A DNA stretch of 64,000 nt from Candidatus Fraserbacteria bacterium (GCA_037442925.1 JBBIPG010000001.1:1368-65367); one strand, 5' to 3'. Positions 1 through 48,062 are shown, numbered from the stretch's first letter. Numbers and translations are program-made. The notes: a model not told the origin generated them from the sequence alone.

Positions 1-106
1 GATCAAGAGTTGCATCCTGTTGCACAGCAGCTCCAATGCTGAGCGAGCTGCCCAGGAGCACCAGGGTCACAGCCAGACCGACCAACTTGAGGTTCTTCTG
101 CAACAT
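1..106 (-). CDS. Secreted hypothetical protein, paralog of the 1364..1954 product (C-terminus cut by window edge)
   Basis: Reverse-complement of 1..106 starts ATG and translates MLQKNLKLVGLAVTLVLLGSSLSIGAAVQQDATLD, a signal peptide near-identical to the 1364..1954 product. AGGAGG SD 8 nt upstream. Confidence 0.5.
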   Translation of the reverse strand, partial: MLQKNLKLVGLAVTLVLLGSSLSIGAAVQQDATLD

Positions 107-168
107 TGTCTATCTCCTCCTTTAGGAGTTTGGGTTTAGAGAGGAGCGCTCGACTCTCCTGCCCTCAC
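78..168. repeat. 91-bp near-identical segment (copy 1) covering start codon, SD and 5' leader of the secreted-protein gene
   Basis: Matches 1926..2016 with about one mismatch, read by eye. Confidence 0.7.
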
Positions 169-193
169 GGTAGTTCCAATGGAAGGCTTTGGA

Positions 194-257
194 CCATCAA
201 AAACTCGATAGAAATAGCATCGTATTTGCGACGGATAGAGCATCAAAGATTTGATGG
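194..257. promoter_or_regulatory. Divergent promoter region with operator-like palindromes (copy 1)
   Basis: Three elements: a degenerate site near 194-211, CATCGTA-tt-TGCGACG near 218-233, and GCATCAA-AGAT-TTGATGG at 240-257. They are homologous to the array at 2042..2105. Confidence 0.4.
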
Positions 258-325
258 ACGACGAGAACGTATGACTATATGATCGGGTTGATCTCTGTAG
301 TGAATTGAATGGAAGGGAGGGAACT

Positions 326-1291
326 ATGCTCAAGATTCTAGTGTTGGTGATTGCCGCCCTGACCCTGCTCATCTGGCAAGTGTGGCCTATGATCTATCAG
401 GCAAGTGTAACCTCCATGTGGAGCATTGGAGAGGGGACGACTCAACAGATCTCTCTTTCTGACATGAAGAAAATCGAAACTTCAGAGGGCATCATCTACT
501 ATGAGGCGGGACAGGAGCAAGTTGCCCAAGACATAGCTGAAATACTCTTCAGGAGCCGCCGATTGATTCGACAACATCTGGGAATCGATCCTCATCTGCC
601 ATCGATCGTGCTCGTCCCTCAGCAGCCTGGGGTCGGTAGTGTAATCCTCAAGGGGATTATCGCCATTCCGCTTATGGTCCCCCCCGACATGAAAAGCCTC
701 AGGGATGCTGACGCGATAACAGATCTTTTTGTTTATTGGGTGGTACCTCATGAAAGTGTAGAATTAGTAATCGCACCGATACTCTATCACGACCGTTCCA
801 GTCGCTGGATAGGAGATGGATTAGCGCAGTACGCGGGCTATCTTGTCGCTCAGGAACTCTTCCCACAAGGGCTGGAGCGGTTCATGCGTGGCGAGTATCA
901 GCGAGTGGAGGCTCTTCTCGCGCAGGGGAACAGCGTTTACGACTTGACGAGGGAATTCTTGGTCCGAAGAGCTGAATCGGAGAACTTGCTGTCGCCACGT
1001 AACCCAGAGGAGTGGGCAGGCTATGCGGTTTCCTTGGCCCTCTGGCTCGACATCGCTAGGCGCTATGGTGAGGAAGTGATTCGAGAGCTTTGGCATAGGG
1101 TGAGCCAGCTCTCTCGCTGTGTTCTATACGTCATTTGCTTGAGCCGTCCTACAGCTAAAGATGCGGCCCGCATCCTCAGCGAGTTGACCGGAGAAGATAT
1201 TTGGCATCGCATCCAAAGCATGGATCTTCAGAAGGTTCTCGAAATCCTAAAGGCAGCTGACTCTCGAAGCTTTCCCAGCGAGGCTCCCTGA
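326..1291 (+). CDS. Membrane-anchored hypothetical protein (N-terminal TM helix, about 300-aa extracytoplasmic domain)
   Basis: ORF 305..1291. Likely ATG at 326 after AAGGGAGGG SD. Hydrophobic N-terminus LKILVLVIAALTLLIW. No family recognised; an HESVE motif was noted. Confidence 0.55.
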   Translation: MLKILVLVIAALTLLIWQVWPMIYQASVTSMWSIGEGTTQQISLSDMKKIETSEGIIYYEAGQEQVAQDIAEILFRSRRLIRQHLGIDPHLPSIVLVPQQPGVGSVILKGIIAIPLMVPPDMKSLRDADAITDLFVYWVVPHESVELVIAPILYHDRSSRWIGDGLAQYAGYLVAQELFPQGLERFMRGEYQRVEALLAQGNSVYDLTREFLVRRAESENLLSPRNPEEWAGYAVSLALWLDIARRYGEEVIRELWHRVSQLSRCVLYVICLSRPTAKDAARILSELTGEDIWHRIQSMDLQKVLEILKAADSRSFPSEAP

Positions 1292-1324
1292 GTTGCTGGC
1301 TTTGGCATGACAGAAATGTGAAGA

Positions 1325-1351
1325 GGGCCAGCCGGATTCCCAAGCTGGCCC
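1325..1351. terminator. Terminator-like hairpin between convergent genes
   Basis: GGGCCAGC-N11-GCTGGCCC 8-bp stem. No clear U-tract on either side. Confidence 0.3.
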
Positions 1352-1363
1352 TCGACCGTCGAA

Positions 1364-1954
1364 CTAGAAGATTGTACCTCCGACGCAGACCTCAACGAAG
1401 AAGGGGGGAATCTCCACCTTAATGCAAACTCTGCCACTTACTATGACGCCACCTCCTCCGGCAAAGTCTCCTCCCAGACCGACTCTTACCAGAAGCTGGC
1501 CATCGCTGGGTGATCCTTTCTTAGGACCTTCTGTATCAGCTGCTGTCGAGTTTGCGGCGAACACAGGGTAGAGGCCTTTGGAGTAGATCTGGCCGTTTAT
1601 CTCCGTTGTCTGGCGCACGTAGAGTAGACCCATGAGCAGGAGGCCACGCTCGTTCTGGGTGAAGTCTTGGATCTGCTCTTTGACTTCGTCCGTCAACTTC
1701 ACGGGCACGAAGATCGCTCGTCCAAGGGGATCGATCACGGCTTTGGGAAAGTCAAACGCCCGCGGATCGTAGCCCGATGCGATCATCTGCGACAGCAATT
1801 CAGCAACTAACGCCTGTCCAGCTGCTTCGTCCGTGTTGAGCGTACCCGGATCAAGAGTCACGCCCTCTTGGGCCTGAACTGGCCAACCGCTTGAGATTCC
1901 CACAATCGCCAACGCGACTGCTAAGCCGACCAACTTGAGGTTCTGCTGCAACAT
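1364..1954 (-). CDS. Secreted hypothetical protein with Gly-rich C-terminus
   Basis: 196-aa ORF. Signal peptide MLQQNLKLVGLAVALAIVGISSGWPVQAQEG. C-terminus GLGGDFAGGGGVIVSG. AGGAGG SD. No family recognised. Confidence 0.6.
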   Translation of the reverse strand: MLQQNLKLVGLAVALAIVGISSGWPVQAQEGVTLDPGTLNTDEAAGQALVAELLSQMIASGYDPRAFDFPKAVIDPLGRAIFVPVKLTDEVKEQIQDFTQNERGLLLMGLLYVRQTTEINGQIYSKGLYPVFAANSTAADTEGPKKGSPSDGQLLVRVGLGGDFAGGGGVIVSGRVCIKVEIPPFFVEVCVGGTIF

Positions 1955-2016
1955 TGTCTATCTCCTCCTTTAGGAGTTTGGGTTTAGAGAGGAGCGCTCG
2001 ACTCTCCTGCCCTCAC
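1926..2016. repeat. 91-bp near-identical segment (copy 2)
   Basis: Matches 78..168. Confidence 0.7.
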
Positions 2017-2041
2017 AATAAGCGCAGCCAGAGTTTCCACA

Positions 2042-2105
2042 CCATCAAGTGTTTGATGGAAGAAGCATCGCACTTGCGATGGGAGAACCATCAAAGATTT
2101 GATGG
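2042..2105. promoter_or_regulatory. Array of three palindromic operator-like sites in a divergent promoter
   Basis: CCATCAA-GTGT-TTGATGG at 2042-2059, CATCGCA-CT-TGCGATG at 2066-2081, CCATCAA-AGAT-TTGATGG at 2088-2105. The two 18-bp sites are perfect inverted repeats about 46 bp apart. Confidence 0.5.
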
Positions 2106-2180
2106 ACAAGGTGTAACTATGTGTATATGATGGATACACGTCCTCTACGGAATTGAATCGAAAGGAACTAAAGGGAGGTG

Positions 2181-2381
2181 ATGAGAGTGCAACGTTCTCA
2201 AGCCAAGAACGACTGGCAGCTCACAGTCTATATTCCCAAGACGCTGCGTGGCGAAGATCCCATCATGCAGTTGAAGCATTTGGCTCTGAGTAAGCGGCGG
2301 TCGGTCAACTTCCTGGTCGTCGAAGCCATCCGTAAGTATGTGCAAGAAATGCAACATCAGAACCCACTTGAGCAGGGATGA
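2181..2381 (+). CDS. Ribbon-helix-helix (CopG/Arc/MetJ-like) DNA-binding protein
   Basis: 67-aa ORF. QLTVYIPKTLRGE (beta strand) followed by two helices (MQLKHLALSKRRS, VNFLVVEAIRKYV) fits an RHH fold. GGGAGG SD. Confidence 0.5.
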   Translation: MRVQRSQAKNDWQLTVYIPKTLRGEDPIMQLKHLALSKRRSVNFLVVEAIRKYVQEMQHQNPLEQG

Positions 2382-2573
2382 TTACTCGACTCTCACGATG
2401 CCGTGGGCAGTAGAAGTCTGAAACTGACTAACGAGACGCTCGCAGCCATGGTGGGCACAAGCCCTCAGACGGTTTCGAGTTGTTTGGGGAGACTCCAGCG
2501 CAGGGGAATCATCGCTCGTGAGCGGGGTTGGATCAGAATTCTCGAGCCAGATGGAATGGGCGCTTTTACATAA
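2382..2573 (+). pseudogene. Crp/Fnr-family HTH C-terminal remnant (no N-terminal cNMP domain, no start codon)
   Basis: Frame opens right after a TGA and reads ...LKLTNETLAAMVGTSPQTVSSCLGRLQRRGIIARERGWIRILEPDGM*, a typical Crp/Fnr C-terminal helix-turn-helix. Only about 60 codons, and no room for the sensor domain. Confidence 0.5.
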
Positions 2574-4858: not shown

Positions 4859-6321
4859 AGTTGGTCGTTGACGTCCGATCTTCTGTCCATGTCATCGCCA
4901 TTCTCCTTCAGTGGTTTGCTTTGGCTTTCCTCTTGCCTCTGGCAGTTGCGTTCTTTTATGGCGAGATTCTCTGGCCTTGGCTGCTGTCTCTGGGGGTAGC
5001 GTTGCTGCTGGGCACGGGTCTGCGGGTGCTCACGCGCACGAGCAGAGAAATAAGAGCCCGCGAGGCGTTTCTAGTCGTCGGGTTGGGATGGCTCCTGGTT
5101 GCCCTGGTTGGATGCCTGCCTTATGTATGGCTAGGGGTACTCTCGCCGATCGACGCGCTGTTCGAGTCCATGAGCGGATTTACTACGACTGGTGCCACTG
5201 TGATCGCTGACATAGAGTCCCAGTCCCGATCTCTCTTGTTCTGGCGCGCTCTCAGTCAATGGCTGGGGGGAATGGGCATCATCGTGTTGGCCATTGCGGT
5301 CTTGCCCAGGCTTGCCGTGGGGGGACGACAGCTGGTGGAAGCGGAAGTCCCCGGCCTGGAGATGGAACGACTGGCTCCCCATATCCGCGACACGATCCGA
5401 ACGATCGGCAAAGTGTATCTCAGCTTGAGCTTGGCCGAAGTGCTGGTCCTGCTTGTTACGGGTGTTTCTCTATACGAAGCAGTGGCACACACGTTTACGA
5501 CGCTGGCCACAGGAGGCTTTGGCACACGGAGCCGAAGTATAGAGCCCTTCTCACCTCTCACGCAATGGGTCATCACGTTTTTCATGGTGGTGGGGGGCAC
5601 GAACTTCGCACTCTTCTATCGAGGGTATCGGGCCAAGCTGGGCTTTGGCTCCATCTTCGTTCGAGATGAGGAATTTCGCTTCTACATGGCGACCCTTCTT
5701 CTTGCCAGTCTATTGCTGTTCGTGAGTTTGCTGCGCCTGTATCCGGGAGTAGAAGAGGCACTTCGGTATAGCACGTTTCAAGTTGTATCCATTATGACTA
5801 CGACGGGCTATGCCAGTACAGATTTCAACGAATGGGGCTCGACTGCCAAGTTGATATTACTGGCACTCATGTTCTTGGGTGGGAGCGCCGGTAGCACGGC
5901 GGGCTCGATCAAGCTCGTCCGGACGCTGCTCATCTTCAAGCTGATATGGCGCGAGATCCGGCAGCTCCTGCACCCGCAAGCGGTCATACCCATCCGATTG
6001 GGGTCACGTGTGATCAGCGAGGAGGCTCTCAAAGGCGTGATGATCTTTGCCATCGTCTATGTGACGATTTTCGCCTTGGGAAGCATTCTGCTCATGTTGG
6101 ATCTAGAGCGCGTGGGTGGAGTTCAAGTGCTGGACGCGGTGAGCGCCGTTGCTTCCGCCCTGGGAAACGTGGGACCCGGCTTCGGGATTGTGGGACCGAT
6201 GGCCAACTACGCGACTCTGCCGGAGACGTCAAAACTTCTTCTGACAGCGCTCATGTGGATTGGGCGTCTGGAAATCTTCCCGGTGATTGTGCTCCTGACG
6301 AGAAGCTACTGGCGGGGATGA
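4855..6321 (+). CDS. trkH: Potassium transporter TrkH/KtrB family
   Basis: Multi-TM protein with GGFGTRS and TTTGYA-like selectivity motifs. ATGA overlap with trkA. Confidence 0.9.
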   Translation: MKLVVDVRSSVHVIAILLQWFALAFLLPLAVAFFYGEILWPWLLSLGVALLLGTGLRVLTRTSREIRAREAFLVVGLGWLLVALVGCLPYVWLGVLSPIDALFESMSGFTTTGATVIADIESQSRSLLFWRALSQWLGGMGIIVLAIAVLPRLAVGGRQLVEAEVPGLEMERLAPHIRDTIRTIGKVYLSLSLAEVLVLLVTGVSLYEAVAHTFTTLATGGFGTRSRSIEPFSPLTQWVITFFMVVGGTNFALFYRGYRAKLGFGSIFVRDEEFRFYMATLLLASLLLFVSLLRLYPGVEEALRYSTFQVVSIMTTTGYASTDFNEWGSTAKLILLALMFLGGSAGSTAGSIKLVRTLLIFKLIWREIRQLLHPQAVIPIRLGSRVISEEALKGVMIFAIVYVTIFALGSILLMLDLERVGGVQVLDAVSAVASALGNVGPGFGIVGPMANYATLPETSKLLLTALMWIGRLEIFPVIVLLTRSYWRG

Positions 6322-8274: not shown

Positions 8275-9315
8275 ATGCGAAAGCTATGCGTACTGGTTGG
8301 AGTTTTAACTCTCGTCGGATTCATCTTGGCAGGCTGTGGACCGGGCAATCAAGCGCCCACAGTGAGCGTGACCAGCCCACAGGTAACTCAGGGTAAAGCG
8401 ACATCTAACAGCAAAGCCGTCTCCTTTGAAGTCAAAGGAGAAGACAAAGATCTACCTCAGGGCCAAAAGCTAACATACTCCTGGGATTTCGGTGACAACA
8501 AACCCACCAGCAAGAAGGACACGCAGGACGCCAAGATCACCTACACCTATGATAAGGCGGGGACCTACACCGTGAAGGTCGTGGCCACCGATGACAAGAA
8601 GGCCAAGAGCAAGGAAGTCAGCATCCAACTGGAAGTAAAGAACGCTCCACCCACAGCGGACGCCAAGGCCACACCCACGAGCGGTCAAGCCCCGCTGACT
8701 GTGCAGTTCGATGCCAGCGGTTCCAAGGATGCCGATGGCACGATCGCCAGCTACGAGTGGGACTTCGGCGATGGCCAGAAAGGCTCAGGCCAGAAAGTCA
8801 ATCACGACTATGTTGAACCCAAGACCTACACCGTCACGTTGACCGTGACCGACTCTGACGGAGCCAAGGCAACCAAGACTCTTACCATCACCGTGGAGGC
8901 GGCTTCCCAGGGAAAAGTCTGGGAAGTCCAGATGGAGCTTGAGGGCGGGAAGTTCTACTTCGAGCCCGCCGTGCTCAAGATCAATGTCGGTGATACCGTG
9001 CGCTGGGTCTGCAAGAGCGGCTGTCCTCATAGCGCAACGGCCTACACGAAGACGAACGGCAAAGCGGATGGACTGCCCGCGGGCGCGGCCTCATGGGATT
9101 CCAAGCTGGTGAACCAGGATGGTACGTTCGCGTTCACGTTCAGCGGACCGGAAGGGAGCTACCCCTACTTCTGCATCCCGCACGTTGCCTTGGGACAAGT
9201 GGGGCTCATCATCGTGGGCAAGTACACAGACTTGAGCGCCGACTTCCTGAGTAGCTTGCAGGGTGCGGAAAAGACGGAGATGCAAAAACTCATCGATCAG
9301 GCGAAGACGCTTTGA
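8275..9315 (+). CDS. Lipoprotein with two PKD domains and a C-terminal plastocyanin-like cupredoxin domain
   Basis: LAGC lipobox. Two WDFGD...YT PKD signatures. C-terminal CPHS ... YFCIPHVALGQ copper site (His, Cys, His, Gln). Confidence 0.7.
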   Translation: MRKLCVLVGVLTLVGFILAGCGPGNQAPTVSVTSPQVTQGKATSNSKAVSFEVKGEDKDLPQGQKLTYSWDFGDNKPTSKKDTQDAKITYTYDKAGTYTVKVVATDDKKAKSKEVSIQLEVKNAPPTADAKATPTSGQAPLTVQFDASGSKDADGTIASYEWDFGDGQKGSGQKVNHDYVEPKTYTVTLTVTDSDGAKATKTLTITVEAASQGKVWEVQMELEGGKFYFEPAVLKINVGDTVRWVCKSGCPHSATAYTKTNGKADGLPAGAASWDSKLVNQDGTFAFTFSGPEGSYPYFCIPHVALGQVGLIIVGKYTDLSADFLSSLQGAEKTEMQKLIDQAKTL

Positions 9316-10175
9316 CATTCTCTATCGTCGCTTGCGATCTCAAATCTGAGGAGTGGGGCGTCGCGGTTCAGTCGAAGTTCTTCGCGGTGGGCTCCGTCGT
9401 GCCGTGGGCTCAGGCCAATGTAGGCGCCGTCGCAACCCAAGCCTATGCGAACACGAGCTATGGCCCCCGAGGGCTTCGATTGCTGAGTTCGGGTCTTACT
9501 GCCAAAGAAGCGCTGGACCGACTTCTCTCCGACGATGAGGGTCGCGAACATCGACAGGTAGCACTGATAGACTCCCAGGGTCGTTCGGCAGCCTTCACCG
9601 GCAAGGAGTGTTATCCCTGGGCGGGCCATACAGAGAAACCGGGCTATGCCTGTCAGGGGAATATCCTAGCGGGGGAGGCTGTCGTACACGCCATGGCGGA
9701 AGCCTTCGAGGGAACCCGCGGTTCACTCGCGGAGCGTCTCATCGCTTCCCTTCGGGCCGGTCAGCAGGCAGGAGGGGATAAACGCGGTCAGCAATCGGCG
9801 GCGCTTCTCCTCGTGAGGGAGAAGGGTGGGTATGGAGGGTTCACCGATCGCCTGATGGATTTGCGGGTGGACGATCACCCTCAGCCCATCGAGGAGCTGG
9901 CACGCTTGCTGCGACTCCATCAGCTCTACTTCGGAAAGACGGCGGAGAAGATCCAGCTGGGCAAGAGTGAAGTCAAATCGATCCAGAAGATGCTTCGCGC
10001 CCTCGGCTATTACCGGGGTGCGATCCATAGCACCCTGGACGAGTTGACCCTTCAGGCCCTTGAGGATTTCCACAACGTGGAGAATCTGGAGATGCGGCGA
10101 CTTCAGACGCCCGACGTCTTAGATGTCGAAGTCTATCGATTCATGGAGGAGAAGTATCGAGCTCTTGGCCATTGA
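9312..10175 (+). CDS. DUF1028 (Ntn-hydrolase-like) protein with C-terminal peptidoglycan-binding domain
   Basis: MTFSIVACD N-terminus (Thr2). C-terminal LRALGYYRG...LDELTLQAL resembles PG_binding_1. Confidence 0.65.
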   Translation: MTFSIVACDLKSEEWGVAVQSKFFAVGSVVPWAQANVGAVATQAYANTSYGPRGLRLLSSGLTAKEALDRLLSDDEGREHRQVALIDSQGRSAAFTGKECYPWAGHTEKPGYACQGNILAGEAVVHAMAEAFEGTRGSLAERLIASLRAGQQAGGDKRGQQSAALLLVREKGGYGGFTDRLMDLRVDDHPQPIEELARLLRLHQLYFGKTAEKIQLGKSEVKSIQKMLRALGYYRGAIHSTLDELTLQALEDFHNVENLEMRRLQTPDVLDVEVYRFMEEKYRALGH

Positions 10176-45589: not shown

Positions 45590-47064
45590 ATGCTCAAGCG
45601 TGGTCTCAGGCTTGCAGCGATACTCGGTTTCTTGTCGGTGTTGATTCTATCGGGGAGTTTTCCTGGAGTGGGGGTAATCGCAAGCGCGCAGCAAGATATT
45701 TCAGCGATCGTCGAGCGTGTCAGGCCGGCGGTCGTCGAAATCGTGACGGATAAGGGGCAAGGGAGCGGATTTATCATCACATCGGATGGGGCAGTTCTCA
45801 CTGCTTACCACGTCGTGCGGGGAGCCAGCAGCATCGAAGCTCGGTTGCCGAATGGCTCAAGCTACAGAGCAACTGTAGGAAGTATGATGAGACGTATGAC
45901 CGTGGGGGCAGCGATCTGGCCTTGCTGAGGGTAAGCGCCAGCGGCCTTCCCACAGTGAGCTTAGGCGACTCGGATACCATCAGGATTGGGCACTCCATCA
46001 TCGTCATGGGCTATCCCTTGGGTATGGGTTTTCTTGTTGGCACCGGAAACATTAGTGGCAGTGTGGATTTTGGCGGTGGGCGCACAGTCTTTGTAATTGA
46101 TGCTGCCGTCAACCCAGGCAACAGCGGCGGACCGCTCCTCAATGATGAAGGTGATGTTATTGGAGTCGTCTTCGGCAGGGCCGATGTCCCCGGGATCAGG
46201 GTGGAGGGAATCAACTTCGCTACCCCAATAAACACTGCCAAGCGTGAGTTGAGACTAAACGTACCCACTGTGCACACCCTCACCCTCGGCCACAACAGCA
46301 CAGTCCTGTCAGTAGTGTTCAGCCCCGACGGACGGCTGCTCGCCTCCGGCTCCGTGTTCTGGGACAGTAGCACGTGGAGAGGAGAGATCAAGCTGTGGGA
46401 TGTAGCCACGGGTCAGGAGATCCGCACCATCAGCCCCAGCGGTAGCTGCACTATCGAGTGGGGGATCGCGTTCAGCCCTAACGGACAATTTCTCGCCTCC
46501 GGCTCCGGGGAAGGAGTGGTCTATTTGTGGGAGGTGGCCACGGGCCGGGAGGTCCGCACCTTAACTACTGGCAACACCTTCTCAGTCTGTTGGGTGGCCT
46601 TCAGCCCGGACGGGCGGTTACTCGCCGCCGCCACCGCCACTGACGACATCAAACTGTGGGAGGTGGCCACGGGTCAGGAGATCCGCACTCTCACTGGCCA
46701 CACCTACGGTGTCCATCAAGTAGCCTTCAGTCCTGACGGAAAGTTCCTCGCTTCCGGTGCTGGTGACTATACTATCAAGCTGTGGGAGGTGACCACGGGC
46801 AAAGAGGTGCACACACTCTCCGGTCACACTGGGTCGGTGTACTCCGTAGCCTTCAGCCCAGATGGGAAGCAGCTCGCCTCAGGTTCCTGGGACGAGACAA
46901 TCAAGCTGTGGGCTGTGGCCACAGGACAAGAAGTTTGCACCCTCACAGGGCACACCGACCAGGTCAATTCGGTAGCCTACAGTCCCGATGGGAGGCTCCT
47001 TGCCTCCGCTGGCTATATGGACCATACGATTAAGCTCTGGAACATCACTGCACTGTCAGGGTGA
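45590..47064 (+). pseudogene. Secreted trypsin-like (S1/HtrA-type) serine protease fused to WD40 repeats, interrupted by a -1 frameshift near 45880
   Basis: ORF 45590..45928 carries signal peptide and the catalytic His (LTAYHVV). The next frame (45922..47064) continues with DLALLRV (Asp) and GNSGGPL (Ser), then 6-7 WD repeats. The two frames join at ...RATVG|KYDETYD. Confidence 0.7.
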
Positions 47065-47115: not shown

Positions 47116-47240
47116 GGCAACCCCTGCAATCACCCCTGGAACCGACCCGACGTGCCTGATGGGCAAGTGTGTCTGCCATAGATGCAAGGAAGCAACTGGC
47201 GGTCAGCAATCCGCTGTCAGCAGAGACGAAAGACTCAAAG
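47116..47240. repeat. Copy A of about 125-bp direct repeat flanking the DUF433/DUF5615 pair
   Basis: About 80% identical to 47938..48062, read by eye. Core: GTGTGTCTGCCATAGATGCAAGGAAGCAACTGGCGGTCAGCAATC. Confidence 0.6.
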
Positions 47241-47937: not shown

Positions 47938-48062
47938 GACAACCTTGGCAATCACCCCGGAACCGGCCCAGCGTGCTCGATGGGTAGGTGTGTTTGCCAT
48001 AGACGCAAGGAAGCAACTAGCGGTCAGCAATCAGCTCTCAGCTAAAGGCAAGAGCTGAAGGC
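47938..48062. repeat. Copy B of about 125-bp direct repeat
   Basis: See copy A. Confidence 0.6.

Follow-up and report, generated by a model that had tools for sequence, protein, structure and literature searches.

Class II CRP/FNR-type promoters and the autoregulated operators of CopG-type ribbon-helix-helix (RHH) proteins are textbook arrangements of transcriptional control, and concerted evolution of the 5′ region among paralogous genes for surface or secreted proteins is known from the upstream homology regions of the Borrelia erp and mlp genes and from 5′ gene conversion between babA and babB in Helicobacter. Here we describe a locus with features of each in a 64,000-nucleotide stretch of DNA from Candidatus Fraserbacteria bacterium (GCA_037442925.1 JBBIPG010000001.1:1368-65367; hereafter the window), where two paralogous genes for secreted proteins, gene A (cut by the window edge) and gene B (1364..1954, minus strand), carry an identical 62-nt leader. 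A preliminary description of this DNA had offered two explanations for such a leader, recent gene conversion or a structured cis-regulatory RNA. We consider it about 60% probable that the leader is one part of a promoter-operator-leader cassette of ~320 nt, present in several copies, carried by each paralog, and kept alike by conversion together with selection.

The resemblance to the Borrelia and Helicobacter systems lies in near-identical promoter, leader, and signal-peptide DNA within one genome, with mature parts that diverge and a shared sequence that varies by lineage. The locus differs in the organism, in its defined operator array, and in its very short homologous tract (~97 nt, from the −10 box or transcription start site (TSS) to codon 10). 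As in class II CRP/FNR-type promoters, a dyad 5-N6-5 site would lie near −41.5 of a family-gene promoter that has no −35 element; as in autoregulated CopG operators, a site overlaps the −35 element of a divergent promoter driving a regulator gene; and proteins with a Crp-family helix-turn-helix (HTH) and a CopG-family RHH fold are encoded next door. Unlike in those systems, the half-site is CATCR (TGTGA for CRP, TTGAT-N4-ATCAA for FNR), the recognition helix carries Q..SS rather than RE..R or E..SR, three sites follow one another at 23-bp spacing, and either of the two proteins is a candidate binder.

An identical leader in front of genes A and B

The elements at the 5′ ends of the two genes are as follows.

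1..106, minus strand: 5′ end of gene A, comprising the start codon (106..104) and 35 signal-peptide codons; the remainder lies past the window edge
107..168, minus strand: leader A, a 62-nt 5′ untranslated region (5′ UTR) identical to leader B, with a 5′ hairpin, an A/C-rich tract, and the Shine-Dalgarno (SD) sequence AAAGGAGGAG
1364..1954, minus strand: gene B, 196 aa, with a signal peptide (1-29), a Cys-free N-domain (~40-135), a Gly-rich linker, and a Cys177...Cys190 stretch
1955..2016, minus strand: leader B, a 62-nt 5′ UTR identical to leader A, from the alignment

The shared leader of about 60 nt noted in the preliminary description is real: the two 5′ UTRs align with 62/62 identical positions, and the copies also agree in the SD sequence and in its distance from the ATG. 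The identical block begins with GTGAGGGCAGG and runs without interruption past the SD and the ATG into the coding sequence (CDS), of which nucleotides 1-30 are identical at 28/30 positions. Beyond this point identity falls to 55% (CDS nt 31-105), consistent with the downstream divergence noted earlier; the "nearly identical signal peptide" of the same description holds for residues 1-13 (12/13) and not for the 35 residues as a whole, which are 54% identical. With a 55-nt search pattern, window positions 104-158 and 1952-2006 are identical throughout, where shuffled sequence would be expected to give 0 matches. The copies stand in direct orientation at a distance of 1848 bp, and the block occurs only twice within the 64 kb, each time in front of a family gene.

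An independent Logan assembly (L001) is 100% identical to window positions 139-1975, and both of its ends lie inside leader copies; de Bruijn assemblers behave in this way at a true repeat. The full-length product of gene A could also be identified: the first 35 residues of P0009 (220 aa) equal the translation of window 2-106, and P0009 comes from the same NCBI contig (97,813 nt) as P0001 and P0031, so that it is full-length gene A and a member of the same family. The 42-aa N-terminus of gene A, used as query in a word-indexed search of proteins, gave no match, and the gene A product surfaced in the exhaustive HMMER search described below. Paralogy and secretion, both proposed before, are borne out in that A and B fall into one family and both products open with a predicted Sec-type signal peptide. 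An exact 25-mer of the leader gave 0 matches against one genome per species, a set of representatives that includes neither source genome.

Two antisense open reading frames (ORFs) of 58 aa with a TTG start (106-282 and 1954-2130, plus strand) were considered and rejected as non-coding, as they have only the 21 repeat-encoded residues in common, then diverge, and have no SD.

Operator palindromes and predicted promoters of the cassette

The A/B repeat exceeds the leader and takes in the whole divergent intergenic region (193-283 versus 2041-2131, 74% identity), including three palindromes and a second, divergent promoter. Each array consists of three dyad-symmetric 18-bp palindromes, CATCR-N6-YGATG, with centres 23 bp apart, and exact matches to CATCRM-N4-KYGATG within the 64 kb are confined to the two cassettes. 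The copy B sites read CCATCAAGTGTTTGATGG, GCATCGCACTTGCGATGG, and CCATCAAAGATTTGATGG.

194..257, no strand: operator array A, with site 3 at 194-211 (left half degenerate), site 2 at 216-233, and site 1 at 240-257 (GCATCAAAGATTTGATGG)
2042..2105, no strand: operator array B, with site 3 at 2042-2059, site 2 at 2065-2082, and site 1 at 2088-2105, all palindromes
167..172, minus strand: predicted −10 box of gene A, TACCGT, which fits TAnnnT, 21 nt downstream of a TTGATGG half-site
2015..2020, minus strand: predicted −10 box of gene B, TATTGT, 21 nt from site 3
255..283, plus strand: predicted sigma-70-like divergent promoter of the 321-aa gene, TGGACG-17-TATGAT, with its −35 overlapping site 1
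2103..2131, plus strand: predicted sigma-70-like divergent promoter of the RHH gene, TGGACA-17-TATGAT (10/12), with its −35 overlapping site 1

Of two family alignments used to search for related loci, the narrower A6 succeeded and the broad A5 was too divergent. The family-gene side offers no usable −35 element, and every readable cassette shows TTGATGG-N21-TAnnnT, with the following candidate −10 hexamers.

Window and L005: gene B, TATTGT; gene A, TACCGT; L005 (paralog D), TACCGT
L014: TACGGT, and TATCGT in front of the gene for a 320-aa protein
L007 and L016: TAAGGT and TAGGGT, respectively

On the divergent side the geometry is TTGATGG-N20-TATGAT. The middle palindrome of L005 and L016 carries a symmetric change, CATCGCAagTGCGATG to CATCGGAtaTCCGATG, which preserves the symmetry. 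The operators of gene B and of paralog C (L002) are 97% identical, and paralog C has the palindromes with no local regulator.

The outer palindromes thus stand 21 and 20 nt upstream of oppositely oriented putative −10 boxes. If the TSS lies ~7 nt past the −10 box, the conserved geometry would place the palindrome centre near −41.5 or −42.5 of the family-gene promoter, where the lack of a −35 element would correspond to class II activation, and on the other side the palindrome covers a good −35 element, as expected for an autorepressor. This geometry suggests that the family genes are activated and the divergent genes repressed. The transcribed leader of ~55-62 nt, with a short 5′ stem-loop and a very strong SD that a 5-bp hairpin could partly cover, would probably set messenger stability and the strength of translation initiation equally across the paralogs.

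Candidate regulators beside gene B

Two genes on the far side of array B encode the likely binders, a CopG-type RHH protein divergent from gene B and a Crp-family protein encoded just after it.

2178..2381, plus strand: CopG-family RHH regulator of 66-67 aa, with an ATG at 2181, identified by PDB profile matches
2403..2573, plus strand: remnant of a Crp/Fnr-family gene, the last 56 residues with the C-terminal HTH (Pfam HTH_Crp_2, E = 2e-14)

While the RHH protein had no Pfam match and stayed below the cut-off in NCBIfam, an hmmsearch against PDB sequences matched two solved CopG-family proteins, 9kkd (E = 7e-7) and 6iya (E = 6e-6), and the protein has the β-strand followed by two helices that defines RHH proteins. 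It is 100% identical in L005, which belongs to another species with flanking genes at 72-83% nucleotide identity, and its β-strand, WQLTVYIPK, is invariant even in the distant lineage L016.

The Crp-type gene is intact in L004, a locus from the same species as the window, where the 201-aa ortholog (8837-9442) has both the HTH and the sensor domain. Relative to L004 and L005 the window carries a 536-nt deletion (junction ~2376-2386) that has removed the sensor domain, of the type that binds cyclic nucleoside monophosphates (cNMP), and the upstream region. A full Crp/Fnr regulator has an HTH together with a cNMP-binding-type sensor, and 2403-2573 is a gene remnant because the sensor domain is deleted. 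The window strain may be a natural regulator mutant.

The order Crp-like gene, RHH gene, palindromes, family gene was found in L004, L005, and L016, the last despite a leader and signal peptide quite different in sequence. In L006 and L014 the RHH gene, palindromes, and family gene are present, and the Crp position lies at or beyond the contig end. In L018 and L019, which are distant relatives, the family gene has neither an RHH neighbour nor an upstream palindrome.

The operator, the RHH and Crp neighbours, and the protease partner treated below were absent from the preliminary description, and a common transcriptional and translational control cassette is the more direct explanation that they offer. 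The identical leader would then have an ordinary origin, as a control region homogenised by conversion and not as a new riboregulator, and the locus would represent a small regulon of an uncultured lineage, characterised by a consensus operator, its promoter geometry, and a pair of candidate regulators of which one is naturally deleted here.

Origin of the leader identity

Segment-wise identities from a six-sequence alignment differ between the pairs of paralogs in opposite directions.

A/B: upstream spacer 8/25 (32%); leader 62/62; CDS nt 31-105, 55%
B/C: upstream spacer 24/25; leader 58/62 (94%); CDS nt 31-105, 83%

Outside the leader, upstream as well as downstream, no pair has diverged more than genes A and B, which are identical within it; the reverse holds for B and C. 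Segments with differing genealogies are a signature of recombination. Had the A and B leaders diverged at the A/C or B/C rate (4/62), the probability of 0 differences would be ~0.016. The spacer adjoining the leader is 32-48% identical in comparisons with A, and the candidate A/B tract spans ~97 nt from the −10/TSS region to codon 10. Of the two explanations first offered, gene conversion is thus backed by this mosaic of identity. The leader is also conserved at the orthologous locus of L005 (59/63 positions, 94%) and in a third genome, L014 (~85%), so the recent duplication that its absence there would have indicated finds no support, and conservation in two other genomes points to selection on the leader as well. 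A comparable pattern occurs in two other places: a leader of ~125 nt in L016 is 100% identical in two copies and 94% in a third, which has no operators and whose homology begins at the −10/TSS boundary, and a Candidatus Bipolaricaulota metagenome-assembled genome (MAG) and its metagenome hold four variants with a common 5′ part and a divergent 3′ end. Local gene conversion plus selection for common regulation is the most likely source of the A/B identity, which would combine purifying selection on the leader with a recent conversion tract between direct copies.

Several points weigh against this account. The conversion argument draws on four to five sequences, and the A and B leaders might instead be under tight constraint that has been relaxed in C and D. 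The −10 boxes are weak matches chosen by their conservation, the 23-bp spacing leaves sites 2 and 1 out of helical phase with the positions of classical class I sites, and covariation gives the leader hairpins no support in this lineage. Only a truncated Crp-type gene is left in this genome, so that the family genes may be silent in it if the Crp-type protein is their activator.

The leader can be folded into small structures. A 5′ stem-loop, AGGAG-AGUCGAGCG-CUCCU with an outer extension, is predicted at its start, and a second predicted hairpin of 5 bp, CUCCU-AAAGG-AGGAG, lies over the first half of the SD; RNAalifold favours an alternative 7-bp helix of anti-SD and SD (CUCCUCU/GGAGGAG). A helix covering the SD (the 5-bp CUCCU/AGGAG or the 7-bp form) is predicted in all copies, with 0 compensatory pairs and z no lower than −1.75. 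By folding energy the 93-nt region is no better than shuffles (z = +0.7), and the 64-nt leaders reach −1.1 to −1.75. Under either fold model the leader shows 0 compensatory pairs, with an RNAalifold covariation term of −0.08 and shuffles equal to the observed value, a control that is uninformative because close relatives are nearly invariant. Rfam gave 0 matches at gathering over the 64 kb, and the only match to the leader was SpR10, at 15 bits against a gathering threshold of 50 (E = 7.4).

These data bear on whether RNA structure, as a riboswitch, an RNA thermometer, or a translational-repressor site, itself underlies the identity, the other explanation first offered. The same two hairpins do appear in the A/B, C, and D folds, and L014 has both helices in a shifted register; single-sided changes retain pairing (G.U to A-U, G-C to G.U); distant leaders of other sequence also open with stems (GGGAG/CUCCC in L007), the L016 leader reaches z = −2.5 to −2.6, and two lineages have an anti-SD-like CUCCUC ~25 nt ahead of the SD. 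Yet neither folding energy nor covariation, the checks proposed for this idea, lends it support in this lineage, no Rfam family was matched at gathering, the leader is short (~55-62 nt) with small helices and two competing predicted structures, and a structural role leaves the mosaic unexplained, as the B and C leaders differ more than their flanks (96-97% identical). We therefore regard such an RNA as improbable and a riboswitch-like element as unlikely; a stabilising 5′ stem and partial occlusion of the SD are plausible from the predicted folds as properties of the leader, and would not explain its identity.

Other origins fare worse. A plain recent tandem duplication, with copies identical through youth and neither selection nor conversion at work, would agree with direct repeats 1848 bp apart, but it is contradicted by the divergence of the A/B flanks (32% in the 25-nt spacer, 55% in CDS nt 31-105), the A and B proteins are only ~44% identical, and other species also keep the leader, all of which makes it very unlikely. 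Equally slim are the chances that the block is a small mobile or repeated element, such as a miniature inverted-repeat transposable element (MITE) or a repetitive extragenic palindrome (REP), inserted upstream of several genes. The leader does hold inverted-repeat motifs and the palindrome GAGCGCTC, and the L016 copy that has the leader and not the operators shows a sharp homology boundary; against this, there are two copies only in the 64 kb, both preceding family genes, GAGCGCTC is not enriched (6 observed versus 3.3 expected), the homology runs on into the start codon and signal-peptide codons, neither terminal inverted repeats nor target duplications are present, and the 25-mer scan of representative genomes, from which the source genomes are absent, gave no match. 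Collapse or chimerism of a repeat during metagenome assembly deserves mention given that the source is evidently a MAG and that related contigs often break at these genes, but the Logan assembly that matches window 139-1975 exactly and ends within both copies, the recurrence of the B-side junction in L004, and the recurrence of the cassette in other genomes leave an assembly artefact scarcely credible. A control cassette homogenised by conversion under selection remains the reading we prefer.

Gene B and its protein family

The 196-aa protein of gene B had been described as matching no recognised family, and searches of Pfam and NCBIfam indeed gave no match for it or for its relatives. An exhaustive profile-HMM (HMMER) search returned only 29 clusters related to gene B, an unannotated family whose only organism-labelled matches come from a Candidatus Bipolaricaulota MAG; L005 originates from a Chocolate Pots hot spring metagenome (PMC6137239). 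The common layout is a signal peptide, a Cys-free N-domain of ~100 residues, and a hypervariable C-terminal region. The model of the N-domain has pLDDT >90 and no significant structural neighbour. The C-terminal region has 2, 4, or 8 Cys in nearly all full-length members, arranged as a Cys loop, a Pro/Gly-rich linker, and a second Cys loop; the final Cys stands 1-4 residues before the C-terminus. The earlier label "Gly-rich" fits the short linker and the last 56 residues (23% Gly) and not the protein overall (12.8%; 8.6% in residues 1-140).

1364..1449, minus strand: 3′ cassette of gene B, variable between strains and covering its 28 final codons downstream of the GGGG linker; L004 aligns only down to 1449

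The tail of gene B reads GGGG-VIVSGRV-C-IKVEI-PP-FFVEV-C-VGGTIF, and its Cys177...Cys190 stretch is predicted, with low confidence, to form a β-hairpin. L004 and the window are 98.9% identical in the flanks, and their gene B proteins agree in every residue as far as the GGGG linker; from there on L004 has 28 C-terminal residues of unrelated sequence (tail IGIKV-C-VVVGI-PP-FEATV-C-VTIPIIRF) in the same C-x5-PP-x5-C layout. A diversity-generating retroelement was rejected as the source of this variation: the differences between L004 and the window include indels and all base types, the 64 kb hold no second copy of the 3′ region, and the neighbouring ORFs are not reverse transcriptases (RTs), for which no genome-wide search was made.

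Replaceable C-termini have precedents in conotoxin precursors, with a conserved signal and pro-region and a hypervariable C-terminal peptide built on a Cys framework, and in the polymorphic C-terminal cassettes with a co-varying neighbour gene of CdiA-CT/CdiI and of bacteriocins with Abi/CPBP immunity. The family resembles conotoxin precursors in its conserved Cys-free N-terminal part and hypervariable Cys-containing C-terminal region, and CdiA-CT/CdiI in the exchange, between two strains whose flanks are 99% identical, of the last 28 aa and the neighbour gene, with the breakpoint at the Gly linker. It differs in the tiny size of the variable module (a 14-residue Cys-bracketed hairpin in gene B) and in a protease-like partner in place of the classical small immunity protein.

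Between the RHH gene and AhpC the locus forms a variable island: at the B position of the related species (L005 12503-13582, L006 3318-4397) lie another paralog, P0005, and a CPBP protease, followed by a DDE transposase. Between two family-gene cassettes of L016, positions 4880-5518 hold a 213-nt unit three times in tandem (99% and 92% identity); the encoded protein of 229 aa repeats a 71-aa unit with two transmembrane (TM) segments three times.

Partner protease genes

In every examined locus the gene next to the family gene is protease-like, of MA-clan-like, CPBP, or metzincin type.

326..1291, plus strand: partner gene of gene B, whose 321-aa product combines a TM helix at the N-terminus with a metallopeptidase fold of the MA clan (M1/M61-like) and an atypical HExxE motif

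The 321-aa protein had no Pfam or NCBIfam match. It has the thermolysin-like catalytic fold and lacks the zinc-binding HExxH motif, in whose place stands H142-E143-x-x-E146, with H142 and E143 invariant and E146 nearly invariant in 27 homologs. Compared with the M1/M61 gluzincins of the MA clan, it differs in the change of the second zinc ligand from His to Glu (HExxE in 26/27 aligned homologs), in its single N-terminal TM anchor, and in an ultra-conserved C-terminal helix pair (AARILSELTGEDIW..). This HExxE family of MA-fold membrane proteins (~30 members, no Pfam entry) is a candidate for family definition. The C-terminal segment AARILSELTGEDIWxKLQxMDLxEVLxTLE is almost invariant across the MA-fold family, at an overall identity of ~35% (alignment A7), and one homolog is labelled Thermofilaceae archaeon.

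In L004 the gene is only 64% identical to that of the window and mosaic, while the strain flanks are 99% identical. Homologs adjoin family genes in L004, L014, L013, L018, and L019. A CPBP intramembrane protease follows the family gene in L002, L005, L006, and L016, P0018 is an apparent fusion of a family protein with a CPBP protease, and in L017 the next gene encodes a metzincin (HEIGHALGLPH). In L013 (1300-1795) a homolog of the 321-aa gene with an in-frame stop runs into a mid-domain family-gene fragment on the same strand, a recombination scar or an assembly chimera.

That a protease gene is always the neighbour suggests a substrate role for the variable C-terminus, which would be released or anchored. 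Dedicated CPBP proteases are described for Cys-containing C-terminal sorting signals, namely MYXO-CTERM with MrtX and JDVT-CTERM with MrtJ (Haft 2023, doi 10.1101/2023.06.07.544157; Guo et al. 2025, PMC11980579). Signals of the MYXO-, JDVT-, and Synerg-CTERM type are defined by an invariant Cys in a signature motif, a TM helix after it, and an Arg-rich tail in the cytoplasm. Several family members are similar in that a Cys motif and a hydrophobic segment end the protein (P0002, which is paralog C, P0007, P0008, P0015, P0017, and P0024) and in that a CPBP gene comes next in L002 and L016; P0005 (L005/L006) has the CPBP neighbour and no hydrophobic tail. Genes A and B have no such Cys-plus-TM tail, and the partner of gene B is the MA-type peptidase-like protein. 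Members adjoining CPBP genes often have the Cys-plus-hydrophobic ending, and the likeness is greatest to the one-client pairs of JDVT-CTERM and MrtJ. Among the sorting subfamilies in NCBIfam these CPBP proteins match MrtJ and MrtS best, with ABC_perm_CPBP as the top match in two of three and scores below every subfamily cut-off, and none of the CTERM models matches the family. Unlike CTERM signals, the tails have no Arg-rich end or basic cluster, finish in C-x-G, CL, or PLAF, and place the second Cys 1-4 residues from the C-terminus.

To judge by its architecture, this unannotated secreted family may yield extracellular peptides by processing or belong to a dedicated sorting pair of a new kind. 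A tentative and rather doubtful extension is that the members are Sec-exported pro-proteins like conotoxin precursors, each with a tail peptide handled by its cognate neighbour protease and a role in antagonism, immunity, or kin recognition. The N-domain would then be a carrier, joined through a flexible Gly/Pro linker to a peptide either disulfide-stapled or hydrophobic between its two Cys, whose release or anchoring would fall to the protease encoded next door, of the MA-type HExxE, CPBP, or metzincin kind. Peptide and protease would be swapped together between strains at the linker, and the products would act at strain level among hot-spring Bipolaricaulota-like bacteria. One RHH/Crp-controlled cassette would switch all paralogs on together, with conversion keeping it uniform.

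Other features of the window

1323..1353, no strand: perfect inverted repeat with 10-bp arms, GAGGGCCAGC...GCTGGCCCTC, lying where the 321-aa gene and gene B converge

This inverted repeat is probably a bidirectional terminator; it was read directly from the sequence and was not picked up by a scan that depends on a T-run.

Further along the window, an intergenic 88-nt direct repeat (47134-47221 and 47955-48042, 85% identical) has its copies just upstream of two small two-gene modules resembling toxin-antitoxin pairs, and may be a duplicated control region. Close by, an ORF of 380 aa (45922-47064) combines an N-terminal part that looks like a trypsin-like protease with six WD40-type repeats, encoded by DNA repeats of 126-132 nt.

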